From positions 981-64,980 of the IMG/VR virus record IMGVR_UViG_3300023174_003694: a stretch of DNA of 64,000 bases, one strand, 5' to 3'. The stretch is from a virus. The notes below the pieces were generated by a model. That model did no database searches, was not told where the DNA came from, and worked only from the letters and a program-made list of their open reading frames with translations. Shown here piece after piece: positions 37,871 to 62,981 of this stretch; within the stretch, counting starts at the first letter, position 1, and each line of letters begins with the position of its first letter. The position numbers were made by a program, and so were the translations under genes.

Positions 37871-37918
37871 GATTAGGACGTAAGGTAAATTATCCTTATC
37901 TTTATGTATAGAAATTAA
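37871..37918 (+). promoter_or_regulatory. bipartite promoter-like motif GATTAGGAcgTAAGG-N-CTTATCTTTATGTATAGAAATTAA
   Basis: One of 7 near-identical copies. Ends 17 nt before ATG 37935. Upstream half GATTAGGA starts 24 nt before CTTATC. Confidence 0.5.
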
Positions 37919-37934
37919 TAAAAAGACAGAAATT

Positions 37935-38315
37935 ATGACAAATTTAATTAAAAGTGTAAATGTAGTAGATTTTATTCAAGGTAGAAAAGGTGCTTTCCGT
38001 GCCATTGTAAAAGTCCAGGCAGGTTTTTATTCAAGTGTTAATTGTGATAATGCTAGTTTAGCAAGTGTTGTTAGACGATTTAAAAAAGGAGCACTTCAAA
38101 CCGTTGAGTTTATACCAGAGGGTGCTGATTATCCATTGACAGTGTTTGCTAAAAAAGGTAAGAATATTATATTAGCAGACGAAGCTTTATTGAAAGAAAT
38201 GACAGTTGGAGATATCAATGGATTGTTTTACGATTCTAATTTATATGACCAAGCTCAATATAAAGCAGTAAATGCAAAGACTTGGGCAGATAAGGCATTT
38301 GTAATTAACTCTTAA
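37935..38315 (+). CDS. hypothetical protein
   Basis: Preceded by the bipartite promoter-like motif ending at 37918. Confidence 0.35.
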   Translation: MTNLIKSVNVVDFIQGRKGAFRAIVKVQAGFYSSVNCDNASLASVVRRFKKGALQTVEFIPEGADYPLTVFAKKGKNIILADEALLKEMTVGDINGLFYDSNLYDQAQYKAVNAKTWADKAFVINS

Positions 38316-38319
38316 TTAA

Positions 38320-38493
38320 ATGAAAAAAGTAAGTTTAGTAATAGTAGCACTCACTTTGATAGGTTGTAGTGCTACTCATAATATAGCAAAGAAGTCTAAA
38401 ACTCAAAAGTATCTGGAAAGGAAAATTGAAAACAATCATAGACAATTTGCAATAGTGAATAACCAAATAATAATGTTTGAAAATATCAATTAA
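38320..38493 (+). CDS. small lipoprotein (57 aa)
   Basis: Signal peptide MKKVSLVIVALTLIGCSA with lipobox LIGC. Under 60 aa, so absent from the track. Confidence 0.4.
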   Translation: MKKVSLVIVALTLIGCSATHNIAKKSKTQKYLERKIENNHRQFAIVNNQIIMFENIN

Positions 38494-38494
38494 G

Positions 38495-38677
38495 ATGAAA
38501 TTAATTTATATGGAATGCACATTAGGAATGCTAGCGGGTCAATATCCTGAGCATGTAGACGTTTTAGTACAATCAGGTACAGTCAAAGCTGTTAATGAAG
38601 TACCTTATTTGGTAATAGAAGTACCAGACGAAGAACCAAAGAAAACTAGAAGAAACACAAATAAAAATAAACAATAA
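38495..38677 (+). CDS. hypothetical small protein
   Basis: ATG right after the lipoprotein stop. Track start 38477 would overlap it. Confidence 0.3.
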   Translation: MKLIYMECTLGMLAGQYPEHVDVLVQSGTVKAVNEVPYLVIEVPDEEPKKTRRNTNKNKQ

Positions 38678-38681
38678 AGTT

Positions 38682-39119
38682 ATGGCAGCACAAAAATTTC
38701 AATTCGGAGACAAAGCATATGTAAATGCAAAACACACTCAATATGATGCAAAAAACTATGGAGTGCATGAAGGAATGGAAGTAATTACCGGAGGTATGGC
38801 ATACAACGGATATTACAATGTAAAATTACCAAATGGTCAACAAATCCAAATGGCATCGTCTGCTTTGGATAAAATTCCATCAAGAACTAAAAAAGAGCAA
38901 TTTGAAGAGCAGATTGAAAAAGCTCAAGCAAAAATTTATGCTACTCAAGCATTTATTGCAGAAACTAAAATGAAAATTGATTTCATGGACGAGATTAAGT
39001 CTGAGGACTTTGATGAAAATGAATTCAAAGCTTATCAGACTTTGACTTTAATTGAAAACACTTCAATGTCAAAATTAGAAAAAGCTAAAGCAATTGCATC
39101 TTTAATCAATTCTAAATAA
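38682..39119 (+). CDS. hypothetical protein
   Basis: 145-aa ORF. No motif. Confidence 0.3.
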   Translation: MAAQKFQFGDKAYVNAKHTQYDAKNYGVHEGMEVITGGMAYNGYYNVKLPNGQQIQMASSALDKIPSRTKKEQFEEQIEKAQAKIYATQAFIAETKMKIDFMDEIKSEDFDENEFKAYQTLTLIENTSMSKLEKAKAIASLINSK

Positions 39120-39125
39120 TAAGAT

Positions 39126-39497
39126 ATGATAGTAATTATAATTTTATTGGTAGTAGCTGTATTTATAGGAATTGCAGTAGAATTTATTAATATATTTGAA
39201 CATGGCACTCCTGCTAAAGATTCAGACATTCTGGAAATGTTAGAACTTCGTGCTGGAGATTATGATATAGACAGAAAATGGAATGATAAGTTTAAGCTTA
39301 AAGCACATTGGAAATCTGAAGCTCCTTCTATACAGCAAACTCAGCATAGTATTATATTTCCTTATTACATAGATGATGTAGGAGTAGTACCAATTTGGTA
39401 TAAGTCAGCCGCTAAAATTAAAAGTATATTCGAAGTAAAGATTGCTAACTCAAAATATACAGTATCGAAAAGAGACAAATTAGGTTTAAATAAATAA
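39126..39497 (+). CDS. hypothetical membrane-anchored protein
   Basis: N-terminal TM IVIIILLVVAVFIGIAV. Confidence 0.3.
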   Translation: MIVIIILLVVAVFIGIAVEFINIFEHGTPAKDSDILEMLELRAGDYDIDRKWNDKFKLKAHWKSEAPSIQQTQHSIIFPYYIDDVGVVPIWYKSAAKIKSIFEVKIANSKYTVSKRDKLGLNK

Positions 39498-39501
39498 GAC
39501 T

Positions 39502-40152
39502 ATGGAAAATTCATATACAGCAAATGAAATGGGAGATCCTCCTAAAGACTTTTTCGAAGACAGACCTAAATTAAACATCTTTGAAAAAATATCACTTTGG
39601 TGGAAATTTGATGGACGATACTACCATAAGTATTTCAAACAAGGAGTAAAGAACCTATGGTATTGGTTTCCAATTATCTGGAAAGATAGAAATTGGGATG
39701 GGCATTACATTTACGAAGTGATAAAGCACAAATTAAAAGCTCAATCTAATTACATCGGCCGTAGAGATTTTCATACTCGAGCACAACAAGATGCTAGAAG
39801 AATGAGAATTTGTGTTAAGTTAATTGAAAAGATTCAAGATGACTTCTATCAAATGGAGTATATGGATTATGCAAAAGATAAACAATGGTTTGAACCTTGT
39901 AAAGATAAAGAAGGATATTTTGAATGGAAATCAGAAAACGTTTGGGAATCTTATGAAGACTATTTTAAAAAATATCCATTAATTTATAAACAAGTAATGG
40001 TTGATAATAAAGGCCCATTTACTTTGTCGGGAAATACAGACACTAATTTTAAGCAAAGGATAGCAATGAATATTGCACATATAAATCACGATCGAGCAAG
40101 AAAATTGCTATTTAAAATAATGGAAGAAAACATCGAAGGGTGGTGGGACTAA
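39502..40152 (+). CDS. hypothetical protein
   Basis: 216-aa Trp/Tyr-rich ORF. No motif. Confidence 0.3.
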   Translation: MENSYTANEMGDPPKDFFEDRPKLNIFEKISLWWKFDGRYYHKYFKQGVKNLWYWFPIIWKDRNWDGHYIYEVIKHKLKAQSNYIGRRDFHTRAQQDARRMRICVKLIEKIQDDFYQMEYMDYAKDKQWFEPCKDKEGYFEWKSENVWESYEDYFKKYPLIYKQVMVDNKGPFTLSGNTDTNFKQRIAMNIAHINHDRARKLLFKIMEENIEGWWD

Positions 40153-40153
40153 T

Positions 40154-40693
40154 ATGGAAATAATCAATAACGACATAAACTTTACTAATAGTTTTATAAA
40201 TCAGTTAGTAACACTAATTCCAAAAAAAGTAATTGAATATTGGAATCCTGAATATTCTACTGCCGGATTAGTTAGATTTGATAATGGTAAGCTTGATGCA
40301 GTATATATTGAGGCGCCTAGTAAATATGGAGAGCATAACTTAATTAAATTCAATGTAGTTAAAGGAAAGTATGTATTTGATTCTGTGTATTCTCATTATG
40401 ATATTAAAACGTCAGCTGACGCTCATCCATGGGAGTATAGATATGATAAAGATTTAAATGTAATTGCTACATACAAATTTGCAGAGTCACCTGATGAGGA
40501 ATTTATATCTACCCAATATAAAAATGGTAAAAAATATAAAGAGTACATATATGCAAAAGCTCCTTTCAACCCTCCAGTATTTAAATCTTTAGAGAAAATG
40601 AATATCCTTGAATTCAAGGACAATGTAATTGATAATATCAATTGTTTAAAAGTTAATGGAAACGCTAATTTAGTGTATTATTGGATAAGATAA
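40154..40693 (+). CDS. hypothetical protein
   Basis: 179-aa ORF. Confidence 0.3.
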   Translation: MEIINNDINFTNSFINQLVTLIPKKVIEYWNPEYSTAGLVRFDNGKLDAVYIEAPSKYGEHNLIKFNVVKGKYVFDSVYSHYDIKTSADAHPWEYRYDKDLNVIATYKFAESPDEEFISTQYKNGKKYKEYIYAKAPFNPPVFKSLEKMNILEFKDNVIDNINCLKVNGNANLVYYWIR

Positions 40694-40697
40694 AGAT

Positions 40698-40940
40698 ATG
40701 GTAGTAATAGTATGTTGTATAGTAGCTGTTGCATTTATTATTACAGTTGCATTGTGGGTAAATGGTATAGATTACATGAAAGAAAATCATCCTGATTATA
40801 AAGGAGAAGATTTATTTGGAGAAGATCCTTTAGATGAAAAAGGTTCTGAAATTAAATTTGAAGATGTCTTCAACGAAGAGAAAAAAGAAAATCTTAAAAA
40901 ATTTATTTCGGAGCACAAAAAAAACATTGAAAAAGATTAG
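40698..40940 (+). CDS. small membrane protein
   Basis: N-terminal TM VVIVCCIVAVAFIITVALWV with an acidic C-terminus. Confidence 0.3.
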   Translation: MVVIVCCIVAVAFIITVALWVNGIDYMKENHPDYKGEDLFGEDPLDEKGSEIKFEDVFNEEKKENLKKFISEHKKNIEKD

Positions 40941-40982
40941 GACGTAAGGAAAATTATTCTTATCTTTATATATAGAAATTAA
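40935..40982 (+). promoter_or_regulatory. bipartite promoter-like motif copy
   Basis: GATTAGGACGTAAGG...CTTATCTTTATATATAGAAATTAA. Ends 12 nt before ATG 40994. Same 24-nt spacing. Confidence 0.5.
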
Positions 40983-40993
40983 AAAATAAGAAT

Positions 40994-41401
40994 ATGAAAC
41001 CATTTACTAAAAGAGTATCAGAAGTTAAGATTGTTTTAAGTCCTAGCCCAGCACAGTATCAAGATGCTAGACATCGTTATTCAGAGATAACCAGTACCGA
41101 TGACACTTATGAAAACCCAAATATTTGGGATAGCTTAATAGAGGCTAGAACATCGACGCTTGTGTTAGAGAATATATCAATAAGAGAAGCTGAAGCAGTT
41201 GCCGAGTCAATTCGAATTATGTTTCCAGACCAACACGTTAACCTTTATGGTAGTGACAATTCCTTTATTGGAAATGTTACTTGGAATGACCAATTGAAAA
41301 TGTTTTGGGGTTATCCAACCTATACTGAAATTGGTAAGTCTATAATGGCAAAAAGAACAGAGGAGCAGGCAGCTCTAGGTATACAACCTTCATGGGAATA
41401 A
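40994..41401 (+). CDS. hypothetical protein
   Basis: Preceded by the bipartite promoter motif (40935..40982). Confidence 0.35.
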   Translation: MKPFTKRVSEVKIVLSPSPAQYQDARHRYSEITSTDDTYENPNIWDSLIEARTSTLVLENISIREAEAVAESIRIMFPDQHVNLYGSDNSFIGNVTWNDQLKMFWGYPTYTEIGKSIMAKRTEEQAALGIQPSWE

Positions 41402-41418
41402 TTAATAAATAAATAAAA

Positions 41419-41682
41419 ATGAAAACGTTTGCAGATTTAGAATTCGGACCTCACCCAAATGGTAATGGGGTTCAGGCAAGAATCCAATTTCCTAATGGAT
41501 ATGGAGCTTCCGTAGTAAAGACTCCTTATACATATGGAGGTAGTCAAGGCAAGTATGAACTTGCAGTACTTGATAAAGATGGTAGACTTTGTTACTCCAC
41601 AGAAGTAACAAATGATGTAGTAGGGTATCTATCGCCAGGCGGAGTAACTGAGTATTTAAGACAAATTCAAATTTTAAAATAA
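41419..41682 (+). CDS. hypothetical protein
   Basis: 87-aa ORF. Confidence 0.3.
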   Translation: MKTFADLEFGPHPNGNGVQARIQFPNGYGASVVKTPYTYGGSQGKYELAVLDKDGRLCYSTEVTNDVVGYLSPGGVTEYLRQIQILK

Positions 41683-41900
41683 TGAAAACAGTCATTAAAG
41701 TTTTAGTAGTGCTCTTCCTAGGATTAGGATTGGTTCAGTTAGTAGATTTAGGTTTATATCTAATGAATAGACCAGACAGCTACCTATTTAATTTAGGAGT
41801 AGTAATACTTGCAGCAATGGGAGTATCATTTGCATTTTTATTATTATATGTAATAAAGATGATTAAGCCAGAGAATAAAAAAGAAAAAATAAACAATTAA
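41682..41900 (+). CDS. holin-like small membrane protein
   Basis: Two predicted TM helices (VIKVLVVLFLGLGLVQLV, LGVVILAAMGVSFAFLLLYVI) and a charged C-terminus KPENKKEKINN. 72 aa. Confidence 0.4.
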   Translation: MKTVIKVLVVLFLGLGLVQLVDLGLYLMNRPDSYLFNLGVVILAAMGVSFAFLLLYVIKMIKPENKKEKINN

Positions 41901-41922
41901 TTTTAAATTTAAACAACAAGTC

Positions 41923-42750
41923 ATGAAAAGAATTTTAGTAGTATTAGGAGTAGTTTTAGCATTATTTGCATTGACAATGTCGTGCGAGAACATTGACTCA
42001 GGTAACATTGGTATCAAAGTAAATAAATTTGGTACGGGTAGAGGAGTAAGTGGAGTAACTGAATGTACAGGTACAGTCTTTTATAATCCAATCACAACAA
42101 ACATCTATGAATTCCCAATCAATATTCGTCATAAAGAATATACAGAAGAAGGTTCGTTTGTAGTAAATTCAAAAGACGGTTCAGAATTTCACGTATCGCC
42201 TATTGTGAATTATAGAATTAATCCAGACAAAGCAACTCAAATCTTTGCAAAATATAGAAAAGATTTAGACGGAATCGAAAATGGATTTTTAAAGACAGCT
42301 GTAACGGAAGCATTTAGAATTGTAACAAACGGATATACCGCTGATCAATTAATCTCAAGTAGAGAAGCGTTTGATACTAAAGTAAAAGCTACATTAAGAA
42401 AACAATTAGAACCAGAAGGATTTGTATTAGATCAATTTACGACAAATTTAGAATATCCAGCATCATTTAAAAATGCTATCAATGCTAAAAATAATGCAGT
42501 GCAGAAAGCATTAATGGCTGAGAATAGAGTTAAGCAAGCAGAAGCAGAGGCTAAAATTAAAGTAGCGACAGCAGAAGGAGACGCTCAATCAACACTTACT
42601 CGTGCAAGAGCAGAAGCAGAGGCTAATAAATTAAAGCAAGCTACATTGACACCATTATTAATCCAGCAACAATGGATTGAAGCTTGGAAAGGTGATGTAC
42701 CAACGACAGTATTAGGTTCAGGTACAAATGTAATGTATGGTTTGAAATAA
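41923..42750 (+). CDS. SPFH/band-7 (prohibitin/HflK-like) domain lipoprotein
   Basis: Signal peptide with lipobox LTMSC. GIKVNKFGTGRGVSGV...VSPIVNYRINPDKA resembles the SPFH core. Ala/Glu-rich AEAEAKIKVATAEGDAQS...RAEAEANKLK tail is typical of the family. Confidence 0.55.
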   Translation: MKRILVVLGVVLALFALTMSCENIDSGNIGIKVNKFGTGRGVSGVTECTGTVFYNPITTNIYEFPINIRHKEYTEEGSFVVNSKDGSEFHVSPIVNYRINPDKATQIFAKYRKDLDGIENGFLKTAVTEAFRIVTNGYTADQLISSREAFDTKVKATLRKQLEPEGFVLDQFTTNLEYPASFKNAINAKNNAVQKALMAENRVKQAEAEAKIKVATAEGDAQSTLTRARAEAEANKLKQATLTPLLIQQQWIEAWKGDVPTTVLGSGTNVMYGLK

Positions 42751-42764
42751 TCAATATTAATTGA

Positions 42765-42790
42765 AGCCTGGGTTCGTCCCAGGTTTCTAA
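42765..42790 (+). terminator. rho-independent terminator
   Basis: GCCTGGG-ttcgt-CCCAGGT hairpin followed by TTTCT, directly after the stop of 41923..42750. Confidence 0.6.
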
Positions 42791-42802
42791 CATTTAAAAA
42801 TT

Positions 42803-43426
42803 ATGAAATACATTTCAATTGACATTGAAACAACAGGATTAGATCCTGAAAGATGTGATGTTCTTTCTATAGGAGCTATCATTGAAGATTCTGCCAATCC
42901 ATTGCCTTATGAAGAATGTCCTAAATTTCACGCTGCTATATTGCGCCATGAATTAAATGGATCTCCTAGAGCAATTACAATGAATGCAGACTTAATTGTT
43001 TCTATTGGATCTTATATGGAACCAAAGACAGAAACTACTCGAGCAGAATTAGAAGCTAGCACCGGAATGACTTTTTGGTATCCAGAGACTGTAGTGCAAG
43101 CATTTTACAGATTCCTTTATGAAAATGGAATAGCAGAGTCTCCAGAAATTCCAAACAATGGAAAGGCAGTTACAATTAATTGTGCAGGAAAAAACTTTGG
43201 AACCTTTGATAAACTCTTTCTAGAAAGACTTCCTAGATGGAAGCAATGTATTCGAATCTCTCAAAGAATTCTAGACCCTGCAATTCTATTTGTAGATTGG
43301 AAAGAAGATAATGCTCTTCCAAATTTGAATTTGTGCAAAGAGAGAGCGGGTATTAAGGGACTCGTAACTCATAATGCTTTAGAAGACGCTTGGGATGTAA
43401 TTGAAGTGTTAAGAAAAAAATACTAA
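42803..43426 (+). CDS. DEDDh 3'-5' exonuclease (DnaQ/oligoribonuclease-like)
   Basis: Exo I ISIDIETTGLDP. Exo III HNALEDAWDV (H-x4-D). Terminator hairpins before and after the gene. Confidence 0.7.
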   Translation: MKYISIDIETTGLDPERCDVLSIGAIIEDSANPLPYEECPKFHAAILRHELNGSPRAITMNADLIVSIGSYMEPKTETTRAELEASTGMTFWYPETVVQAFYRFLYENGIAESPEIPNNGKAVTINCAGKNFGTFDKLFLERLPRWKQCIRISQRILDPAILFVDWKEDNALPNLNLCKERAGIKGLVTHNALEDAWDVIEVLRKKY

Positions 43427-43438
43427 ATTATTTTAAAG

Positions 43439-43462
43439 TACCCCGTTAATCGGGGTATTTTC
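43439..43462 (+). terminator. rho-independent terminator
   Basis: TACCCCG-ttaat-CGGGGTA hairpin followed by TTTTC, after the stop of the exonuclease gene. Confidence 0.65.
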
Positions 43463-43572
43463 ATGATTGAAAGGTACTGGTTTTTGCTAGATATTTATAT
43501 TTATTTTAAAGTCGATGTAATTGTTTTGTAATAAGTTTCTAAATTTAGTTTAACTTTAAACAATTATATATT

Positions 43573-43821: not shown

Positions 43822-43822
43822 A

Positions 43823-44926
43823 ATGAAAAACTTATCGAAAGAAGAGTTATTAAGTAGACTCGAAGCAATTAATAGGAGTAATGCTATTATTTACTTTGAC
43901 CTTAAAGGAATCATATTAGGTGTTAATGACATTTTCTTGGAAGCGATGGGCTATGGAGTGGGGAACCATGAAGAACTTATTGGTAAACATCATAGTACTT
44001 TTGTATGTGAAGAATATGCAAGATCTCTTGAATATGAAAAATTTTGGGATATATTAAGAAGCGGTAAGCATTATCAAGGAGAATTTGAAAGAAGAAAAAA
44101 AGACGGAAGTCTTATCAATCTTCAAGCAACTTACAATCCTATTTTTAATGAGGATGGTAAAATTACTAAAATAATGAAAATTGCTACCGACATTACGCCA
44201 ATTGTCGATAGCAAGAAACAAATAGATGCAATCAATAGAAGTACTGCCTTAATTAGTTTCAACACTGATGGATTCATAACAAATGCAAATTCTATATTTT
44301 TAAAAACTATGGGGTACAAATCCAATGAAAAAGACAAAGTCATTGGAAAGCATCATAGTATTTTTGTAAGCTATGAATATTCAAAATCTGACGAATATGC
44401 TAAATTTTGGGAGAATTTAAAAAGTGGTAAATACTTTGATGGAATATTCGAAAGAAGAAAAGTAGATGGTTCTATTGTTTATTTACAAGCAACATATAAT
44501 CCTGTATTTGATAGCAAAGGTAATATTACTGATGTAGTTAAGATAGCAACTGATGTTACAGAAGCTGTGAAGGATAAGAAGAAGATTGACGAGCTTACAG
44601 AGAATTTAACAATTGAATTAGAAAACTCTCAAAAACTTAAAGCTGCAATAGAGATAGAAAAGGATGCTGCTATAAATGATTTAGATGTAGTACTAAAAAA
44701 GAGTCAAAATGAGTTAATAAAAGTAATTGTTAAATGTGCTTTAGCAGTTATAGTTGGAGTAGGTGTTGTAACAACTATATTATATTGGTTAGCGATGCTT
44801 ACTGGTAAGGACACTCAAATTATTGGCTCAACTTGGTCAAATATGTTTAGTGTACTATTAACCAACGCTTTTTCAATAGTAGGTACGATTATGGGAATAA
44901 AGTACGCTACGCAAGAAGGTAAATAA
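43823..44926 (+). CDS. tandem PAS-domain protein with coiled-coil and C-terminal transmembrane anchor
   Basis: ATG at 43823, 2 nt after the upstream stop. Two ~115-aa repeats with PAS hallmarks: GIILGVNDIFLEAMGY...IGKHHSTF...GEFERRKKDGSLINLQATYNPIF, then GFITNANSIFLKTMGY...IGKHHSIF...GIFERRKVDGSIVYLQATYNPVF. C-terminal hydrophobic helices. Confidence 0.55.
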   Translation: MKNLSKEELLSRLEAINRSNAIIYFDLKGIILGVNDIFLEAMGYGVGNHEELIGKHHSTFVCEEYARSLEYEKFWDILRSGKHYQGEFERRKKDGSLINLQATYNPIFNEDGKITKIMKIATDITPIVDSKKQIDAINRSTALISFNTDGFITNANSIFLKTMGYKSNEKDKVIGKHHSIFVSYEYSKSDEYAKFWENLKSGKYFDGIFERRKVDGSIVYLQATYNPVFDSKGNITDVVKIATDVTEAVKDKKKIDELTENLTIELENSQKLKAAIEIEKDAAINDLDVVLKKSQNELIKVIVKCALAVIVGVGVVTTILYWLAMLTGKDTQIIGSTWSNMFSVLLTNAFSIVGTIMGIKYATQEGK

Positions 44927-44942
44927 TAATATAAAAACAAAT

Positions 44943-45260: not shown

Positions 45261-45307
45261 TATTTTCTACAAAAGAAATTCATATATTTACTTTAAATAA
45301 GTAAAGT

Positions 45308-45858: not shown

Positions 45859-45860
45859 TT

Positions 45861-46448: not shown

Positions 46449-46450
46449 AT

Positions 46451-47299: not shown

Positions 47300-47353
47300 C
47301 GGCTTAGGACCGGTATTGTTGCCAGCTTTTCATCGGGCAGGTGTCAGGATAGT

Positions 47354-47388
47354 CTGAGTAAAGTGTCGCTACCTTGCTCAGATTTTCT
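47354..47388 (+). terminator. rho-independent terminator (imperfect stem)
   Basis: CTGAGTAAAG-tgtcgcta-CCTTGCTCAG then ATTTTCT. One mismatch and one G-U pair. Confidence 0.45.
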
Positions 47389-47393
47389 ACTGT

Positions 47394-47441
47394 TTATTAG
47401 GATCTTATTGTTTTTTGTCTTATCTTTATGTATAGAAATTT
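47394..47441 (+). promoter_or_regulatory. promoter-like motif copy (upstream half degenerate: TATTAGGATC)
   Basis: CTTATCTTTATGTATAGAAATTT at 47419..47441, 15 nt before ATG 47457. Confidence 0.45.
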
Positions 47442-47456
47442 AAAAATAAACAAATT

Positions 47457-47606
47457 ATGAAAAGATTTTCAAAGAATGATCGTTATGTTATTGCAATGAT
47501 TGCATTAGATGCAGAAAAAAATGGAATGACACCTGAAGAAGCTTTACAATATGCTATAAACCATGTGAACTCGACTAAAAGAGTATCATTGAAAAATCGA
47601 TTTTAA
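47457..47606 (+). CDS. small hypothetical protein (49 aa)
   Basis: ATG 15 nt downstream of a promoter-motif copy (47419..47441). Under 60 aa, so absent from the track. Confidence 0.3.
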   Translation: MKRFSKNDRYVIAMIALDAEKNGMTPEEALQYAINHVNSTKRVSLKNRF

Positions 47607-47619
47607 AATTCACTGAAAT

Positions 47620-47667
47620 GATTAGGATTGTAGAAGAATTATCCTTATCTTTATGTATAGAAATTAA
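47620..47667 (+). promoter_or_regulatory. bipartite promoter-like motif copy
   Basis: GATTAGGATTGTAGAAG...CTTATCTTTATGTATAGAAATTAA. Ends 13 nt before ATG 47681. Confidence 0.5.
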
Positions 47668-47680
47668 AAAAATAGAAATT

Positions 47681-47887
47681 ATGGAATTTGACGGTAGTAA
47701 AATTGATTATTCAAAATTAGAAAATGTAGTAATAGGAGGGATAGATTTTGAAGATTATCCTGATTTTTGTGATGCTTATATTGTAGCTGCAGATTATGAC
47801 GGAGTAGCATTGACAGAGTTAGAGTTAGATGAATTGAGCCAAGATGGAGAATTTGTTCATGAAACTCTTATTAAACAATTATTTTAA
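47681..47887 (+). CDS. small acidic hypothetical protein
   Basis: ATG 47681 lies 13 nt downstream of the bipartite promoter motif. The track start (47618) sits inside the motif, so it was trimmed. Confidence 0.35.
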   Translation: MEFDGSKIDYSKLENVVIGGIDFEDYPDFCDAYIVAADYDGVALTELELDELSQDGEFVHETLIKQLF

Positions 47888-48212: not shown

Positions 48213-48595
48213 TGAAAAATCAATTCAAAGTTGCAAAATACGAAAAGACAGATGAAGGTTTTAAACACCTTGGATACGATGAGTATGTAATAGAATATCT
48301 TAAAGGCAAAAAGCCTCATCAAATTAGAATTGTCGTGAATGGAATTTTATCTACTAAAACTATTAATTTAGTTGATTGTCATTCAGGTTACAAAAACCAA
48401 ATCTTATCAGCGATAAGTGAAATAAAAAACGACAAGATTAAATCAAAGGATATAGTTTCTTGCAAGAAAAAGGTAACATTAAGTTACATAGGTACTTTCT
48501 ATAGCAAATTGATTGTTAAAAACGTTAAGAACTATTTAATAGGAATTAACAAAGAAGAAAGACGAGACACTCTAACTAAATTCGAATTAATTTAG
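48212..48595 (+). CDS. hypothetical protein
   Basis: 127-aa ORF. Confidence 0.3.
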   Translation: MKNQFKVAKYEKTDEGFKHLGYDEYVIEYLKGKKPHQIRIVVNGILSTKTINLVDCHSGYKNQILSAISEIKNDKIKSKDIVSCKKKVTLSYIGTFYSKLIVKNVKNYLIGINKEERRDTLTKFELI

Positions 48596-48647
48596 GTTCT
48601 ACCAAAAGAAAATCTTATATTTATATCCAATTAAAAATTAACAAATA

Positions 48648-55792: not shown

Positions 55793-55793
55793 G

Positions 55794-56552: not shown

Positions 56553-56643
56553 TGGTATATTTTTTACTTTGGATGGCATATGAATTTATAAGACCAAAAT
56601 TAATTTGGTTATGGTATTTCTTAATTAAAAAAGGACAAGGAGA

Positions 56644-57915
56644 ATGATAAAACTTAAAAATTTACTTTTAGAAGTATATAAATTAGACGATTCTGCATTA
56701 AATGAAAACGCATTAACTGATTTATTTAAAAGTGTAAGAACTTATGGATTAGTAAATGCGGTATTAAGAAATGCAGGAACTCCTTTAGGCACCTCCTTAC
56801 TTAATGGATTTAAGACAGGAGCCGCATACAAACCAAATAAAAAAGGAGAAGTGCTTTTTAGTAAAGATGTGTCTTGGTACGACCCAGATAAAGTTCCAGG
56901 CCTAGCTAAACAAGTAGATAATGTTGAGCGTGAGTATGAAAAAGCATGGACAGGTCTTATGAATGTAAAGAAAAAATTATCTAAAAATTTAGGAACTGTA
57001 GATGTAGAAAAGATTAAATCTGGCGATGGAAAGTCTCAGATAACAAAAACTCCAGATATAATTATCAATCACAAAGAGTATCTTGAAGCTAATCTAATAT
57101 TAATGAAAGCAGAAGGTAGCAAAATATATTATTTACACAAGCTACAATTAGCTATGGGTGCTAAAGATAAAGAAAACCCGGAAGGGCTATCTGTACCTAT
57201 ATGGAATGAAAAAGGTGACTGGGTCGGCAACTCTTATGATAAAAAAGACTTATACAAAAAATATCCTAAAAATATAGTAGATGTTGCGTTTACAGACAAA
57301 CCTAAGCCTATGGGTACCAGAATTAAAGATATACAAATTTGGATCGCTGATCTAGAGAAGCAAATTAAAACTGGTGAGAAATTAACTCGAGGTGAAGAAG
57401 CTGAGGTATTAGCACAATACTTTATGCCTCCAGGAGAGGTTGATAAAATAAAAGATAAAAAAGAAGATACTTCTGCTAAGCCTTTGAAAAGTATGAGTGA
57501 TGAAGAGTTGTATAAGTCTTTAGATGATGCTAATGAGAAGCGAATGCATTGGAATGGATATAAAACAGAAAAACCCGAGCAAGCTGCTAAAGCGTTTTTA
57601 GTTTATGCTGAACATAAGTTAGAAAAGTTAATGAGAGCTAGGAAAAAAGAAAAAAATCCAGAGCAATCATTCTTTGACAATACAAGTGCTATGAAGAGGC
57701 TAGGAATTAAATCAACTAAAGACATTAAAGAGTATCCGGATTTAGAAGCAAAGATAGGTATGTCAAGTGAAGACTTATTAAATAGATACAATAAGTATGT
57801 AAATGACATGTATCGTGCTGACGAAGAGTTAGCTGGATGGCAAGATGAAATTAAAAAGAAAACGGCAGATTATAATCAAAAATATGAAACTCCATATAAA
57901 TCAATTTTAAAATGA
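56644..57915 (+). CDS. leader-A family protein (MIKLKNLLLEV), 423 aa
   Basis: Leader. No other motif recognised. Confidence 0.35.
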   Translation: MIKLKNLLLEVYKLDDSALNENALTDLFKSVRTYGLVNAVLRNAGTPLGTSLLNGFKTGAAYKPNKKGEVLFSKDVSWYDPDKVPGLAKQVDNVEREYEKAWTGLMNVKKKLSKNLGTVDVEKIKSGDGKSQITKTPDIIINHKEYLEANLILMKAEGSKIYYLHKLQLAMGAKDKENPEGLSVPIWNEKGDWVGNSYDKKDLYKKYPKNIVDVAFTDKPKPMGTRIKDIQIWIADLEKQIKTGEKLTRGEEAEVLAQYFMPPGEVDKIKDKKEDTSAKPLKSMSDEELYKSLDDANEKRMHWNGYKTEKPEQAAKAFLVYAEHKLEKLMRARKKEKNPEQSFFDNTSAMKRLGIKSTKDIKEYPDLEAKIGMSSEDLLNRYNKYVNDMYRADEELAGWQDEIKKKTADYNQKYETPYKSILK

Positions 57916-58244
57916 TAAAGCTTAAAAATATATTATCGGAAGCAGAGCCTGTAAAAGAAACAAAGGAATTTGAAGAATTTGCAGAAACTCGTATGAATGG
58001 AGCAGAGAAGATTGCAGACACTGCTCAAGAAAAAGGCGGATTAGCTTTACTAACTTGGCATCATTTTAAAGTAAAAGCTCCTTATTATAAGAAAGCTTCT
58101 GAAGGAGAGTTTGATGTAGAGCAAGCAAAAAAAGAATTTGAAGAAACTTACAAAAAGATATCTTTAAACATGACTCAAATTGAATTTCAAAGAGAGGTAG
58201 GTCGTTTAGAAGTTCTTGGAGAGCTATTAATCAAACAAAAATGA
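57912..58244 (+). CDS. leader-A family small protein (MIKLKNILSEA)
   Basis: Leader. ATGA overlap with the upstream gene. Confidence 0.35.
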   Translation: MIKLKNILSEAEPVKETKEFEEFAETRMNGAEKIADTAQEKGGLALLTWHHFKVKAPYYKKASEGEFDVEQAKKEFEETYKKISLNMTQIEFQREVGRLEVLGELLIKQK

Positions 58245-58762
58245 CAAGAGTAAATTTAGATATATTTCAAAAATCAGAGACTGATTTAATATTACGACTT
58301 AGCGATGAGCTTTTAAGTAGTAACTTCAATGCTGGTAATACAGTAATTATTTCAGTATCAGCTGATTATTCTAATATAATTAGTCAAATATTAAGACATT
58401 CGTTAAGTTATAAAGGAGAAATTTGTGATGGATTTAGTATAGACGTGCCTTATCCAGATGAAGTATGGGATTCTACTTACTTACGTGAGTTAGAATCATT
58501 AATGAGTTTATACAGATATAAATTAAATAATAAAAAAATACTATTAGTTGAAGCCGGCGTTATCAGAGGTTCTAATTACAAGTTTATTATAGATTATTTC
58601 AAAAACAATTTACGAATAACTCAAGATATTTATACGTTAGCATTATATGAAAATAGTAGTTCTAAATTTGAATCTGATTTTATAGGAGAATATTATGATG
58701 ATGAAACTCAAGATTTAACATTTTGGTGGGAACGATATAACAAACATTGGAATAATGATTAA
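58241..58762 (+). CDS. hypothetical protein without leader (weak PRTase-like KILLVEAGVIRGSNY)
   Basis: No leader. Its stop is embedded in the next gene's ATGATTAAAC start. Confidence 0.3.
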   Translation: MTRVNLDIFQKSETDLILRLSDELLSSNFNAGNTVIISVSADYSNIISQILRHSLSYKGEICDGFSIDVPYPDEVWDSTYLRELESLMSLYRYKLNNKKILLVEAGVIRGSNYKFIIDYFKNNLRITQDIYTLALYENSSSKFESDFIGEYYDDETQDLTFWWERYNKHWNND

Positions 58763-59909
58763 ACTTAAAGATTTATTAAAGGAATTAGAGTCTAAAGACA
58801 ATTATTACATTGCTAATAATATCATGGAACCTAGATTAGCAGTGAGAAAATATTTCAATGCTAATAAAGACTCTTTGGAAGTACTTATGGATCAAGATAG
58901 ATGGAATGAAGTATATCAAATAATCTTTAAAGAATTTCCACAATTTGAACAACATATACTATCCACTGCAATTAATAGTGAAGCTTTAGATGCAGGATGG
59001 CTAACTAAACAAGTACCTGTAAATACAAAATTATCTTTGGATTCTAATAGTGAAGTAGGAGAAATTCAAACTACAGTTTCTGCTTGGGTAGCTAAAAATA
59101 AAAATAAATTAATAAAGCTAGCAGACGATGATGATTATACAAAATTCTATCAAGCTGCTAGAGATCAATTTCCTGGAGTTCAAGACGATAAACTTTTATT
59201 TGCTTTAAAAGTAGCCGCTGTAGAACATGATATTCATTATGATGTATTGACAGACGGAGTAATCAAACTTAAAGATTTACTAAAAGAAAGCTATAAACTA
59301 TCACTGAAAGATTTAGGAGATGACAATTATAAAGTTATAGCTATTGATAATGGAAAGAATGTAGGAGAATTACAATTTATAAAAAGTAAATTTAAACCTG
59401 TATTGAAAGGAGCTTCAATTGTAGTAGATCCTAACTATCAAAGACAGGGAATTGGATCTGCTATGTATGTATTTGCAGAAAAGCAATTGAAATTAAAATT
59501 TGTTAAAACTGATGATGTTTTAACTGCTAGTGGTAAAGCACTTTGGAATGATCCAAATAGAAAATTTGGTCTTAAAGAATCAGCTCATGATGAAGCATTG
59601 TCTTACACTGAAGAAAAGGCTCTTGAGTTAGCACATAAAAATTGGAGTACATTTACTGGTAAAGTATGTAATTCAGGATTTTGTGATATCTATGCATCTA
59701 AATTATCTAAATTACTTCCAGGCTCTAAACAATGGGACACGGAAGAACAGGGTCCGTCAGGCACTCTTGGTCATGTATGGGTAGAGTTCAAAGGTAAATT
59801 CTATGACGCGGAGACACCTGACGGAGTACGAGATTGGAAAGATCTACCATGGATGCAGGAGTTTTACAAAGCTAAAAAGCAATATCCTAGCGATATTAAA
59901 CAACTATAA
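58755..59909 (+). CDS. leader-A family fusion protein with a second internal leader and a GNAT-like acetyltransferase motif
   Basis: N-terminal MIKLKDLLKEL. Internal in-frame GVIKLKDLLKES at about nt 59255..59290. Downstream VVDPNYQRQGIGSAMYVFAEK is the GNAT motif A (Q/RxxGxG/A). Confidence 0.45.
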   Translation: MIKLKDLLKELESKDNYYIANNIMEPRLAVRKYFNANKDSLEVLMDQDRWNEVYQIIFKEFPQFEQHILSTAINSEALDAGWLTKQVPVNTKLSLDSNSEVGEIQTTVSAWVAKNKNKLIKLADDDDYTKFYQAARDQFPGVQDDKLLFALKVAAVEHDIHYDVLTDGVIKLKDLLKESYKLSLKDLGDDNYKVIAIDNGKNVGELQFIKSKFKPVLKGASIVVDPNYQRQGIGSAMYVFAEKQLKLKFVKTDDVLTASGKALWNDPNRKFGLKESAHDEALSYTEEKALELAHKNWSTFTGKVCNSGFCDIYASKLSKLLPGSKQWDTEEQGPSGTLGHVWVEFKGKFYDAETPDGVRDWKDLPWMQEFYKAKKQYPSDIKQL

Positions 59910-59961
59910 ATAAAATACTTGAATATTTATATTAAATAATTTGGTAGAAAGGAATTAAATT

Positions 59962-59986
59962 CTTATCTTTATATACAGAAATAAAA
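59962..59986 (+). promoter_or_regulatory. promoter-like motif copy (downstream half only)
   Basis: CTTATCTTTATATACAGAAATAAAA just upstream of ATG 59990. Confidence 0.4.
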
Positions 59987-59989
59987 ACT

Positions 59990-61594
59990 ATGAAAAAATC
60001 GGAATTAAGAGAGCTAGTCAGAGAGCAAGTTCGCAATTTAATCAAAGAGGCTAACATATCTCAAGAAGCCTATACAATTCATAACATAACAAAATGTGGG
60101 CAAGATGCCGCTCAAAATTTCATTGATGACAATAAATTAGACGGTAAAAAGTTAGCTGCTTATGTTAGACAACACTCAAACTCAAAAGAAAAGTATGAAG
60201 TTCGAGATATTATTGCTGGTACAGGGGTAGGAGCTAACGTTAGTTTTAAAGCTAGATTCCTTAAACAATTTAAAGAATCTGTAATTAAAGAAGCTAAAGA
60301 ATATACTTTCACTTTTGATTACAATACAGATCCTGATGATATCGAATACATTGAAAATTTATTGAAAAAAGCAAGAGTAAATGCTTATGCTGAGCAAGGA
60401 ACTTTCGATGATGAAATGGTAATCAAAGCAGGAGATGCAATTGAATTACGTAAGGCTAAAAAAGCAATTGAAGCTGATGGATTTCAAATCAACGAAGCTT
60501 CTTTAAAAGAAGCTAACGAGTTATCTTCATATAAAATAGGAGATCAAATCAAATTTTCTAACGGGGAGATTTGGAAAGTAGCTAAACCAGGAGTGAAAGG
60601 AGATAAGATATTTTTAGCTCCATTCAATTCTATTGCAAAGAAAGGACATATTTCATTAGCAATTGAATTCAGTCAAGATGAATTAAACGATACAGTGACA
60701 GAATCTATAAACGAAGCTGCTAACGATATATCATACATCAACAAAGCTAGAGCAAAATCTTCTTTGGAACAAATTAAAAAAGGAAAACGTTCTGATGGTA
60801 TGGGTAAATTCGATGCTAAAGTATATGCTATCAAAGGAACTCAAGAGATTGAATTAACAGATCCTTCAGACTTAGCTAAATATTCCACAGGATACAAATA
60901 TGGATTGAAATCAGAATCTATTAATGAAGCATTAATAGGACCTTTTGCAATTTCAAACTCTACTCCAGATGACGAGTTGATAGCGATGTATCACGGAGCG
61001 TTAGACGGATATGCTAATTACAAACCAGGAATGAAATTTAAAAAATCAGACTATAAATTAGCTTATCAAACTATAGAGAAAATACTTCAGAAAAAAGGAG
61101 TTGCTATTACAGAAGCCGATGACCCAGAAGCTGGAGAAGCAGCTCCATACGGTTCAGGATATTCTGAAGTAAATGAAGACGCGGGAATGGTTATTGATGT
61201 AGCAATGGGCGTTGCAGTAGGCTTAATGGGTTTATGGGCATTGGTTCAAAGTGCTCCTTTAGTAGGTAGAGTATTTGGGGATGCAGCAGAGTATTTAGCT
61301 AATAAATCTGAAAAGAAAGCTAAATTAGCATTGAAAAATCAAAGAAAAGAAACGATAGCTCCTATCATTGCCAAATTTAAAAATGACAAGCAGTTAGCTG
61401 ATATGTATCAAAACTTAACTCCATATAGCGCAGCAGCTAAATTAGGTAGCAGTCAAGCTGGACTTAAAGCACAACAAGGAAGAGTGAACCAATTAACAAA
61501 AATTGGTAAATACATTAAATCTAAATTAACTCCTGAAGAATTAGTATATTTCAGAGACATATCTGCAATGTTAAGAGATGGAGACTTAAAATAA
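59990..61594 (+). CDS. leader-B family large protein (MKKSELRELVREQV) with C-terminal TM segment
   Basis: Leader. Hydrophobic VIDVAMGVAVGLMGLWALV near the C-terminus. Promoter-motif copy (59962..59986) and an ATATTTATATTAAATAA motif upstream. Confidence 0.4.
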   Translation: MKKSELRELVREQVRNLIKEANISQEAYTIHNITKCGQDAAQNFIDDNKLDGKKLAAYVRQHSNSKEKYEVRDIIAGTGVGANVSFKARFLKQFKESVIKEAKEYTFTFDYNTDPDDIEYIENLLKKARVNAYAEQGTFDDEMVIKAGDAIELRKAKKAIEADGFQINEASLKEANELSSYKIGDQIKFSNGEIWKVAKPGVKGDKIFLAPFNSIAKKGHISLAIEFSQDELNDTVTESINEAANDISYINKARAKSSLEQIKKGKRSDGMGKFDAKVYAIKGTQEIELTDPSDLAKYSTGYKYGLKSESINEALIGPFAISNSTPDDELIAMYHGALDGYANYKPGMKFKKSDYKLAYQTIEKILQKKGVAITEADDPEAGEAAPYGSGYSEVNEDAGMVIDVAMGVAVGLMGLWALVQSAPLVGRVFGDAAEYLANKSEKKAKLALKNQRKETIAPIIAKFKNDKQLADMYQNLTPYSAAAKLGSSQAGLKAQQGRVNQLTKIGKYIKSKLTPEELVYFRDISAMLRDGDLK

Positions 61595-61600
61595 TCTATC

Positions 61601-61816
61601 ATGAAAAATACAGAATTAAAAGCTCTTATAAGAGAAGAAGTTAGAAAAGCGCTAAATGAAGACATTGATATTCACAATGATGAGTCTGCAATGAAAGCTC
61701 TAGAAGATATCGCAGTTAACATGACAAAATGGAAAGGTTCTGAAGGAGCTCATTATACAGATTTACTAGAGAAAGTAATAGACTTTTTGAAATACGGTAA
61801 CCATAGAACGAATTAA
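61601..61816 (+). CDS. leader-B family small protein (MKNTELKALIREEV)
   Basis: Leader. Confidence 0.35.
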   Translation: MKNTELKALIREEVRKALNEDIDIHNDESAMKALEDIAVNMTKWKGSEGAHYTDLLEKVIDFLKYGNHRTN

Positions 61817-61817
61817 A

Positions 61818-62051
61818 ATGAAAAAATCAGAATTAAGATCTCTTGTAAGAGAATGTGTATGTGATACTTTAAAGGAAGGCACTATGGTAGACTTCGCTAA
61901 CTATTATAGAGCTTATGACTCAGATGTAAAAGAAGCTGCAAGAGCTTTAGATAAAATAATTGAGGAATCAGGAGCAGGATCGGAAGAACTATTTGATGCT
62001 ATTACTGATTTAGTTGATGCAGTTAGAGCAGATCAAGACGCTGAAATATAA
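61818..62051 (+). CDS. leader-B family small protein (MKKSELRSLVRECV)
   Basis: Leader. Followed by a 10-bp-stem terminator at 62063..62090. Confidence 0.35.
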   Translation: MKKSELRSLVRECVCDTLKEGTMVDFANYYRAYDSDVKEAARALDKIIEESGAGSEELFDAITDLVDAVRADQDAEI

Positions 62052-62062
62052 ATAACATTGTT

Positions 62063-62090
62063 GAGCTCAAAGATTCCTTTGGGCTCTTCT
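62063..62090 (+). terminator. rho-independent terminator
   Basis: GAGCTCAAAG-attc-CTTTGGGCTC (10-bp stem with one G-U) followed by TTCT, after the last leader-B gene. Confidence 0.6.
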
Positions 62091-62606
62091 ACTGAATATA
62101 ATCAACAGGAATCCTGAGGATGACGCGGGAAAGGGTTGACGAAGTCAGGGCCTGTAATAGAACAATATATATACTACTCAACGTATATATGCTCGTACTA
62201 TATATACAGATACTACATATACACTATATACAGATATAACATCAAAACTAAATACTATCATAAAAGCAATAGAAATAGGTATGATCTACTCTATATTTAA
62301 TATTGTTCAAATTAAGAATCAGACTCGTATAGGAAAAGGCAATTACTAGATCCTTATTAGACAGATCATACATATACGGTAATCTATATAGGTGACACGT
62401 AGATGGTTTTAAGGCTATTGAGAATAGGTTTGCACAGATAGATTTTTCTGCCGACACAAACGATTTTTTATATAGCGGATTTCTTTTACTTCGCTTCGCT
62501 CGTATATATAGGATTCGCATATACCTTTACTGCATCTTATATATAGTTCTATATATACTCGAGCGTAAAATACTTTACAAATGATTTGGTTCGTATAGAT
62601 ATTATC
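62091..62606. repeat. noncoding region rich in degenerate TATATA(C/G) / CGTATATATAGG iteron-like repeats plus a short GC-rich island; candidate replication origin or packaging/regulatory region
   Basis: About 0.5 kb without a credible ORF. At least 10 TATATA-core repeats (cgtatatatgctcg, actatatatacagat, atctatataggtgac, cgtatatataggattc, ttatatatagttc, cgtatagatatt). GC-rich segment gatgacgcgggaaagggttgacgaagtcagggcctg near the 5' end. Confidence 0.4.
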
Positions 62607-62630
62607 CTTATCTTTATGTATAGAAATTAA
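62607..62630 (+). promoter_or_regulatory. promoter-like motif copy (downstream half only)
   Basis: CTTATCTTTATGTATAGAAATTAA, 12 nt before ATG 62643. Confidence 0.45.
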
Positions 62631-62642
62631 AAAATATATATT

Positions 62643-62918
62643 ATGATTAGATTATCGGAGATTGACAGAATGAATGAGCAGTTGAATGCGATTACTAAAA
62701 CTCAAGTTCCATCTAAGATAGATGAGTTGAGATCGGCTATTGGTCGTATATATAGTGATAATTACTCTTCCACTAATCGATCCCGCCTCGTTAAGGTTTC
62801 AAAATGTGGGAATTATTGTTATACTGAGGAAGTTGCCTCTGAGTATAGTAAGATAGCCCCGAAGCCAGGCCTATCAAAACAACCTTCTTGGTTGGTTTGG
62901 AATGGAATATTTTCTTAA
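62643..62918 (+). CDS. hypothetical protein
   Basis: ATG 12 nt downstream of a promoter-motif copy (62607..62630). Confidence 0.35.
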   Translation: MIRLSEIDRMNEQLNAITKTQVPSKIDELRSAIGRIYSDNYSSTNRSRLVKVSKCGNYCYTEEVASEYSKIAPKPGLSKQPSWLVWNGIFS

Positions 62919-62933
62919 AAATATTTCAAAAAA

Positions 62934-62981
62934 GATTAGGATCTAAGGATTCTTTTTCTTATCTTTATGTATAGAAATTAA
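62934..62981 (+). promoter_or_regulatory. bipartite promoter-like motif copy
   Basis: GATTAGGATCTAAGG...CTTATCTTTATGTATAGAAATTAA. 24-nt spacing. Ends 10 nt before ATG 62992. Confidence 0.5.

Follow-up and report, generated by a model that had tools for sequence, protein, structure and literature searches.

The sigma-ABfr promoters of Bacteroidota consist of two boxes, and Bayley in 2000 and Chen in 2007 are said to have placed the -33 box, TTTG or TTG, some 19-21 nt before the -7 box. In the mapped promoters of Flavobacterium johnsoniae, T-12, A-11, T-8, T-7, T-6 and G-5 are near-invariant (TAHHTTTG), the start site lies 4-5 nt past the -7 box, and AT-rich patches are found at -18 and -28 (PMC6847099). 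The PeSL cassettes of T4-type phages combine an early promoter with a stem-loop, and recombination between their copies moves genes (PMC2839356, PMC4122927). Experimental knowledge of how lytic Bacteroidota phages program transcription seems scarce, and no promoter-mapping paper for such a phage was found in the literature searched. In this study, we analyzed 64,000 nt of an uncultured viral genome (positions 981 to 64,980 of IMG/VR record IMGVR_UViG_3300023174_003694; hereafter the window), in which a bipartite element, called class A here, stands upstream of seven genes. As predicted from its sequence, the motif is almost certainly a promoter, and most likely it is the strong early-gene promoter of a large uncultured flavophage. 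We give a probability of about 60% to the reading that host RNA polymerase, possibly in a phage-modified form, uses the motif as an early promoter and that the motif doubles as a recombination site like the PeSLs.

The original prediction reported seven copies of a 24-nt core, CTTATCTTTATGTATAGAAATTAA, with at most three mismatches. Exactly seven were found, all on the plus strand and all intergenic, with core starts at 37895, 40959, 47419, 47644, 59962, 62607 and 62958 and with 0, 1, 1, 0, 3, 0 and 0 mismatches, respectively. No match appeared in 100 dinucleotide-preserving shuffles, and the chance expectation was 0. To avoid circularity, a position weight matrix was built from 28 copies outside the window only. 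On both strands of the window, this matrix recovered exactly the seven sites at 31-82 bits; the runner-up, which is intergenic too, scored -7 bits, and the shuffle maximum was -20 bits. Equal occurrence inside coding regions had been named as the case against the motif, and the matrix placed no copy in coding DNA or on the minus strand. The fixed spacing of the two halves was also borne out, as ATT(A/T)GG begins 23 nt 5' of the core in 7/7 window copies and in 35/35 distinct copies. Some details changed. The upstream half of the third copy begins at 47395 (TATTAGGA) and not at 47394. The block GATTAGGA is indeed shared by four copies, but its extension to ...TAAGG by only three, and the position given as (g/t) is C in one. 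The distance of 9-17 nt to the ATG agrees with the core-end gaps (16, 11, 14, 13, 4, 12 and 10 nt) except for the copy at 59962, with 4 nt. The copies at 59962 and 62607 have ATTTGG instead of ATTAGG. Just beyond the window end, two more full copies were found (L017 11620 and 14443). The proposed start codon at 47681 was supported by the relative L007, the sequence of which differs 5' of the motif; the gene of copy 7 starts at 62992 or at 63004, the latter being the metagenome gene call. Positions within the element were numbered by laying it on the coordinates of the mapped F. johnsoniae promoters (PMC6847099). The copies in the window, with their matrix scores, are as follows:

37855..37918, plus strand: class-A copy 1 (77.8 bits); A-tracts, ATTAGG 37872-37877 with G-33 at 37876, 16-nt variable spacer, core 37895-37918, -7 box TATCTTTA 37897-37904, predicted start at A 37910; ATG 37935 of a 126-aa open reading frame (ORF) without family match (ORFan).
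40919..40982, plus strand: class-A copy 2 (79.6 bits); ATTAGG 40936-40941 overlapping the stop codon of the preceding ORF, core 40959-40982, -7 box 40961-40968, predicted start 40974; ATG 40994, 135 aa.
47351..47392, plus strand: terminator-like hairpin, AGTCTGAGTAAAG...CTTTGCTCAGA and then TTTTCTACTG, minimum free energy -23.6 kcal/mol; it abuts copy 3, the two forming a terminator-plus-promoter cassette.
47395..47442, plus strand: class-A copy 3 (40.6 bits); terminator tail in place of the A-tracts, ATTAGG 47396-47401, core 47419-47442, predicted start 47434; ATG 47457 of a 49-aa ORF that is missing from L007.
47604..47667, plus strand: class-A copy 4 (46.6 bits); ATTAGG 47621-47626, core 47644-47667, predicted start 47659; ATG 47681, 68 aa.
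59922..59985, plus strand: class-A copy 5 (31.5 bits), the most divergent, with 3 mismatches; ATTTGG 59939-59944, core 59962-59985, predicted start 59977; ATG 59990, 534 aa, leader 13 nt; a late-type box AATATTTATATTAAAT at 59922 stands in tandem upstream, 40 nt apart from the class-A box.
62567..62630, plus strand: class-A copy 6 (82.3 bits); ATTTGG 62584-62589, core 62607-62630, predicted start 62622; ATG 62643, 91 aa.
62918..62981, plus strand: class-A copy 7 (69.2 bits); ATTAGG 62935-62940, core 62958-62981, predicted start 62973; ATG 62992 or 63004, bpMoxR/CobS-like AAA ATPase.

A scan of IMG/VR with the core gave 15 loci on about nine contigs, which together with the window and its flanks make 35 distinct copies. 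The element begins with two phased A-tracts about 11 nt apart, at about -54..-49 and -43..-40, which resemble an UP element. They are followed by a -33 box (A-37, T, T, A/T, G-33, G-32), a 16-nt spacer that is variable save for AT-rich patches, a -7 box (T-12, A-11, T, C, T-8, T-7, T-6, A-5), and an invariant block, T G/A T A T A G A A A T T A A, which spans the start-site region to about +10. ATT(A/T)GG stands at the fixed offset in all 35 copies (27 ATTAGG and eight ATTTGG) with a pairwise identity of 0.94; TATCTTTA is likewise present in 35/35, and the 24-nt core that contains it has the same pairwise identity, 0.94. The identity was 0.48 in the inter-box spacer and 0.30 in the downstream coding DNA. 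Conserved boxes with a free spacer indicate selection on two protein-contact sites and not recent duplication.

The bipartite element was absent from 185,579 representative bacterial and archaeal genomes (596 Gb). The core alone had 29 matches in these 596 Gb, one per case, and none had the upstream box or the flanking bases. They were taken as chance matches, and the motif was rejected as a host promoter or prophage element in these genomes. This behavior agrees with the promoter-like, phage-lineage-specific element that had been proposed.

The invariant block keeps a fixed distance from the -7 box and a variable one (4-16 nt) from the ATG. Some copies in relatives do not precede a protein gene. 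In L013 (2820-3040, minus strand), a full copy follows a terminator and is itself followed by about 220 nt of GC-richer non-coding DNA, with no Rfam family match, and then by an array of 18 tRNAs. In L009, the cassette is absent at the equivalent position, and a copy with four mismatches lies between tRNA-Pro and tRNA-Val. The predicted leaders, from the A of TATAG to the ATG, are 13-25 nt long and fold at 0 to -1.5 kcal/mol (z of at least -0.8). The fixed box distance, the tRNA-preceding copies, and the unfolded leaders indicate a transcription signal rather than a translation signal. A reading as an RNA structure was dropped, as the leaders and the whole elements fold no better than shuffled controls. 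In an Rfam scan of the window and two relatives, the only matches were tRNAs in the relatives, and the motif had no known RNA at or after it. The tRNA arrays of the relatives hold 19-21 genes, and the L009 region 5990-6138 has, between tRNA-Pro and tRNA-Val, the degenerate copy plus an 80-nt hairpin-rich stretch. The stretches beside the tRNAs in L013 and L009 may be small RNAs or processing signals.

The layout of the element is that of a sigma-ABfr promoter. In 35/35 copies, 20 nt separate its two boxes, and the upstream box has its G at -33. The pattern TT(T/A)G-N19-21-TAnnTTT(G/A) had 20 plus-strand matches in the window, of which 12 fall in the 4.6% that is non-coding, and all 12 end in A. 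T-12, A-11, T-8, T-7 and T-6 are present, and -10/-9 are T/C with no G there. The consensus has AT-rich patches, "tta" at -28..-26 and "ttat" at -19..-16. The predicted leaders are short, unstructured and A-rich, without Shine-Dalgarno sequences, and A at -3, a positive translation determinant in Flavobacterium (PMC6847099), is found at 6/7 start codons. However, all 35 copies have A for the near-invariant G-5; five of six key bases match, and the full consensus TAnnTTTG is matched only in part. The -33 box is TTAG in 27/35 (77%) and a perfect TTTG in 8/35. In addition, the element has about 30 more invariant positions, in the box flanks and from +1 to +10, and the phased A-tracts. The original prediction stated that the element matches neither the Bacteroidetes sigma-A consensus nor the T4 late box. 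The first statement is right for the base at -5 but wrong for the layout. The second stands, since TATAAATA occurs 0 times in plus-strand intergenic DNA and the element requires the upstream box. A sigma-70 consensus scan of 36-56 kb gave 102 matches against 100.5 expected and is uninformative for this host type.

The window has 31% G+C, and all its genes are on the plus strand and lack Shine-Dalgarno sequences. According to PHROGs/Pfam scans, it codes for a T4-type family-B DNA polymerase, a sliding clamp and a clamp loader, and also for GroEL, a dNMP kinase and an Mre11-like exonuclease. Sugar and glycosyltransferase genes make up a long block. From about 36 kb on, it holds mainly small ORFs without a family match, with a MoxR/CobS-like ATPase at the end. 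The same genome is present in two ENA metagenome assemblies, which add 10 kb 5' and 3.4 kb 3' of the window. The upstream 10 kb carry DnaB, ribonucleotide reductase, dUTPase, QueD/QueE/FolE-like genes and GroES; the downstream 3.4 kb (L017) carry a CobT-like protein and the two further motif copies. ENA sequences of this phage are contig k141_76578 of ERZ27247972 (120.7 kb) and NODE_1054 and NODE_1070 of ERZ2680843. A search of INPHARED with a 12-kb piece of the window gave a single match of 0.55 kb, in Flavobacterium phage vB_FspM_immuto, and a search with the 88-nt cassette gave only short chance-level matches. The published nucleotide-level relatives are only the Flavobacterium phages vB_FspM_immuto, over 0.55 kb. 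The phage, most likely large and lytic, probably infects a Flavobacterium-like host (Bacteroidota).

The nine copies, seven in the window and two in L017, fall within 29.5 kb that begin at window 37.9 kb and end near 67 kb, with L017 as the only source for the final 3.4 kb. They precede ORFans and the MoxR/CobT pair, and the 48 kb before them, which hold the replication and sugar-metabolism genes, are free of copies. The phage immuto (vB_FspM_immuto_2-6A, NC_055915) has 24 collinear copies of an element aaaAGTTGC-N20-TATATTTAGGTAT...AATTAAAA, with the general form aaaAGTTGC-N20-TAT(A/C)TTTAG(G/A)TATCAATAATTAAAAC. They stand before nearly every small ORF from gp165 to gp122 (60.9-76.3 kb), plus a few elsewhere. 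The two elements share the A-tracts, G-33, N20, TAT(A/C)TTTA, (G/T)(G/A)TAT and AATTAAAA at identical spacing, and three immuto copies end in ...TATATTTAGGTATAGAAATTAAAAAA (TATATTTAGGTATAGAAAT(T/C)AA), which resembles the core of the window copies. They differ in that immuto has a canonical -33 box AGTTGC, a -7 box that is mainly TATATTTA followed by GG, and a downstream block that is mainly TATCAATAATTAAAAC. The phages themselves also differ, as the DNA polymerase of immuto is of family A and that of the window phage is T4-type family B. The tail sheath, tube, baseplate hub, portal, terminase and fiber genes of immuto are preceded by nTATTTATAA. In 80 IMG/VR loci with immuto-like capsid genes (1.05 Mb), TATTTATA occurs 292 times in intergenic and 38 times in coding DNA, a 145-fold enrichment. 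By analogy with immuto, the class-A motif would be of the early type, which agrees with its clustering. No published description of the immuto element was found in the literature searched. The element can also be written aaaAGTTGC-N20-TATATTTAGGTATCAATAATTAAAAC, the block at 60.9-76.3 kb corresponds to L021 10900-26300, and gp165, among the first genes of the block, is annotated as a DksA-like "DnaK suppressor protein".

The first class-A operon includes a 216-aa protein (window 39502-40152) that is 71% identical to immuto gp234. It is the only early gene strongly shared by these two otherwise barely alignable phages, and it has more than 1,890 homologue clusters in metagenomes at 65-87% identity. 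No Pfam, PHROG or PDB sequence match was found, and the AlphaFold model (pLDDT 66) had no fold match at E < 0.3. Two JGI records give it the tentative label of a phosphoribosyl-ATP pyrophosphohydrolase (MazG-like).

Exchange at the copies was seen in the relatives. L007 aligns with the window on both sides of 47419-47667 but holds a single chimeric copy, the upstream half of which (terminator, spacer) is that of window copy 3 and the downstream half (leader, gene) that of copy 4; the 49-aa ORF between the two window copies is missing. Units of motif plus gene stand in differing order in L001, L003, L005 and L009. The spacer of the orthologous L010 copy has diverged much more than its non-coding surroundings, which are 90% identical. 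The PeSLs (Arbiol et al. 2010, PMC2839356; Comeau et al. 2014, PMC4122927) are similar in several respects. They too are many near-identical strong promoters that are modeled on the host consensus, have AT-rich DNA 5' of them and cluster among small ORFans in variable regions; a terminator hairpin lies directly 5' of some copies, and recombination between copies deletes or inserts genes. In the present phage, the genes downstream of the copies have no family matches. The differences are the other host phylum, the other box sequences and the base that is off the host consensus here, whereas the PeSL promoters of RB49 and phi1 fit the sigma-70 consensus. The stem-loop is also not a constant part of the repeat here and is not of the GGGG...CCCC type. 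In 18 of 34 copies, the 75 nt upstream fold at -9 kcal/mol or lower, and about 8-10 are clear hairpin-plus-T-run terminators of differing sequence. Clear terminators precede about a quarter to half of the copies, and many copies abut a coding region. Several terminator hairpins share a tail, TTCTACTG (window 47385, 53021 and 62087; also L001 and L005). This octamer occurs six times against 2.8 expected, and three of its four plus-strand copies stand directly after hairpins.

We believe that the element is best filed as a phage early promoter built on the grammar of the host primary sigma factor, in a variant with A for G-5, and doubling as a recombination cassette. The host RNA polymerase holoenzyme would read it soon after infection. 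Transcription would start 4-5 nt past the -7 box, at the A of TATAG, and the resulting leaders would be fit for translation without Shine-Dalgarno sites. Each copy would head a short transcription unit, chiefly of small ORFans, and in some relatives of tRNA arrays. As near-identical direct repeats, the copies would be substrates for homologous recombination, by which promoter-plus-gene cassettes are inserted, deleted and reshuffled, as with the PeSLs of T4. In immuto, 0 of 53 occurrences of TAHHTTTG in the complete genome are intergenic, while TTG-N19-21-TAHHTTTA has 36 intergenic and 7 coding sites. This indicates that the first transcription must begin at the latter promoter type. The original prediction advised a search for a phage sigma factor or MotA/AsiA-like genes; none was found. 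No sigma factor, RNA polymerase, MotA or AsiA was matched in about 80 window proteins and one L017 protein (PHROGs/Pfam; about 78 kb), and the immuto annotation holds none.

Several points weigh against this reading. We infer every functional step (start site, timing, polymerase dependence) from sequence, and the whole case for the host is a distant Flavobacterium-phage gene match, the absent Shine-Dalgarno sites and the promoter grammar. The unseen part of the genome amounts to 50 kb or more, and PHROGs/Pfam would probably miss a highly divergent sigma factor or AsiA/MotA analogue. TTAG in 27/35 copies, together with the invariant A-37 and G-32, hints at a reader more specific than sigma region 4. 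A purely host-type reading leaves the change from G-5 to A unexplained. The intergenic/coding density ratio of TAHHTTTG was 1.2 in the window and 0 in immuto, which is no enrichment, but it was 8.3 in phage 11b and 3.1 in phage FCL-2. For TAHHTTTA, the ratios were 7.2, 5.6, 1.0 and 3.5, respectively. Phage 11b has 15 sites of the TATATTTG type. Judged by these ratios, the small flavophages 11b and FCL-2 behave as host-dependent phages should. Because they keep TAHHTTTG and the window phage and immuto do not, the change from G to A belongs to the large phages and not to the host genus. Given this systematic loss of G-5, recognition may involve a phage-specific twist.

The alternative that survives best, which we consider serious though on the unlikely side, is a promoter that needs a phage-specified factor: a sigma factor, an AsiA/MotA-like remodeler with an activator, or a virion-delivered protein. 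Host polymerase would be redirected from TAnnTTTG to TAnnTTTA, and the element would be delayed-early or middle, or early by way of a modified polymerase. In essence, this is what the original prediction proposed. The A in place of G-5 in 35/35 copies, found in the weaker (class B) and late-type classes as well, speaks for it, and so does the distribution of TAHHTTTG, which is never intergenic in immuto (against 53 coding occurrences), is unenriched in the window and is used by 11b and FCL-2. The extended invariant ATT(A/T)GG in place of a simple TTG is also in its favor, as are a very high information content and a conservation far above that of host promoters (PMC6847099). On the other hand, the layout, the spacing and five of the six key bases in the -7 box follow the host sigma factor. 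Promoters of phage sigma factors, such as T4 gp55 and SPO1 gp28, are normally unlike those of the host. Since immuto has no other promoter type for its first genes, the factor would have to be injected. The proteins scanned and the immuto annotation gave no match for such a factor, and the early gene shared with immuto has no recognizable fold or family. The middle promoters of T4 also combine a host-type downstream box with a phage-specific upstream box, but the analogy is functional only. The consensus of the element has no MotA box, (a/t)(a/t)(a/t)TGCTT(t/c)A; its upstream box occupies the host -33 position and is a perfect TTTG in eight of the copies; and MotA and AsiA have no homologue among the proteins scanned.

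Both large phages carry genes of a 7-deazaguanine pathway. The window phage has QueD-, QueE- and FolE-like enzymes (L019 6806-9526), its own GroES and GroEL, and a TGT-like/GroEL region (window 7546-8799 and 8807-10420). Its TGT-like protein is a weak match (Pfam E 0.002, below the cut-off), and its only phage homologues belong to phages of Pseudomonas, Vibrio and Sinorhizobium whose genomes measure at least 200 kb. The DpdA of immuto shares 44% identity with its counterpart in the Campylobacter CP220 group, a phage group reported to replace all G. A search with immuto DpdA gave only immuto and Campylobacter phages, and neither protein led to further Bacteroidota cases. These genes suggest that the phage DNA carries a 7-deazaguanine modification. 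They also correlate with the avoidance of G-5, but with two phages against two this is only a lead. We regard it as doubtful that large flavophages with deazaguanine genes have a private promoter dialect, in which all promoter classes, early-type and late-type, keep the -33/-7 frame and swap G-5 for A, through a takeover of the host or through modified G. If so, a phage protein might retune or block the reading of G-5 by the sigma factor, so that host TTTG promoters are shut and phage TTTA promoters spared, a form of sigma appropriation that would act on the discriminator end. The other possibility is that the guanines of the phage are modified and cannot be read at this position, which is single-stranded. 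If the dialect exists, the motif would be the sign of a takeover mechanism so far undescribed for Bacteroidota.

A third view is that the core is chiefly an operator or an RNA-level control element over an ordinary promoter, for example a regulator site that silences early genes or a 5'-untranslated region for translational repression or RNA processing, comparable to T4 RegA and RegB. Conservation does run to about +10, past what sigma contact needs, class-B sites have the boxes without the downstream block, and the core is an imperfect palindrome (ATCTTTATG / TATAGAAAT, 6/9 positions complementary). However, the immuto block TTTAGGTATCAATAAT is not palindromic, and a conserved palindromic operator was rejected on this account. 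The predicted leaders are unstructured, and the block is not positioned by the ATG and also precedes tRNAs and non-coding DNA. An RNA element would leave the -33 box and the A-tracts unexplained. We therefore find this view very improbable as a replacement for promoter function, but such a role may well exist in addition to it. Weakest of all, and in our opinion next to negligible, is the idea that the repeats serve chiefly as recombination or mobile-cassette ends, or are homogenized by gene conversion, without promoter activity: it would account for the single chimeric copy of L007 where the window has two copies flanking the 49-aa ORF, for the varying cassette order and for the diverged L010 spacer, but not for the strict gene orientation, the proximity to start codons, the two boxes with a variable spacer, the match to the host -33/-7 spacing or the same layout with a different sequence in the independent lineage immuto.

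Compared with class A, the window has a weaker class B, TT(T/A)G-N20-TAT(C/T/A)TTTA, with the same boxes but a different downstream sequence. The two weaker variants noted earlier at about 14262 and 35617 proved to be genuine intergenic sites with this two-box layout. The class-B sites are as follows:

7510..7548, plus strand: TTTG-N20-TATATTTA then GAAT; ATG 7546 (TGT-like protein).
14245..14289, plus strand: TTAG-N20-TATCTTTA then TAAAATAAA, 19 nt 5' of the Mre11-like exonuclease (ATG 14295).
35604..35637, plus strand: TTTG-N20-TATCTTTA, 5 nt 5' of ATG 35640.
37530..37575, plus strand: TTTG-N20-TATTTTTA then TAAAATAAA; ATG 37582.
48592..48628, plus strand: TTAG-N20-TATATTTA then TATCC; ATG 48648 (ATPase).

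Class C has no upstream box. Its sequence is (G/C)ATATTTAT(A)TTAAAT, and it is intergenic and on the plus strand at 15873, 34456, 36467, 43490, 46939, 50928, 53043 and 59922, and also at 2857 (similar) and 33518. A related CTTATATTAAATAAAA was found at 1788 and 29495. On the plus strand, ATATTTAT occurs 12 times in intergenic and 4 times in coding DNA, and TATnTTTAT 12 and 6 times, respectively. On the coding strand, class C is the reverse complement of the TATAAATA of T4. The same box, as nTATTTATAA, precedes the structural genes of immuto, and by analogy this phage group probably uses class C as its late promoter. The tandem late-type and class-A boxes before the 534-aa ORFan at 59990 suggest that this gene is expressed in two temporal phases.

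With about 35 distinct copies plus 24 in a cultured phage, the motif provides a high-information model of an early promoter. Together with the companion late-type box, it would make gene timing predictable across an abundant aquatic phage group. The same element family is present in immuto, which is cultured on Flavobacterium sp. LMO8 and experimentally tractable. The copies mark points of gene gain and loss in these genomes, and the cassette could serve Flavobacterium genetics as a strong promoter. The data also raise the question of why two large flavophage lineages avoid a G that small flavophages keep.

Some other features of the window were noted. A GIY-YIG/homing-endonuclease-like gene (2995-3570) lies just 5' of the DNA polymerase gene, and one metagenome assembly breaks there, NODE_1070 ending at window 2794 and NODE_1054 beginning at 3708. 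This break suggests that the insertion is polymorphic in the population. At 43823-44926, a 367-aa protein has two PAS domains (Pfam E 1e-26) without a recognizable output domain; a PAS sensor domain is unusual for a lytic phage. Between the terminator at 62063-62094 and promoter copy 6, about 480 nt (62100-62580) hold no convincing gene. Repeats of the form (C/G)TATATATA(C/G), direct as well as inverted, are frequent in this stretch, which is 90% identical in the relative L010 and might be a replication origin or some other array of protein-binding sites. A 90-aa ORF on the minus strand at 62248-62520 would be the sole minus-strand gene of the window.

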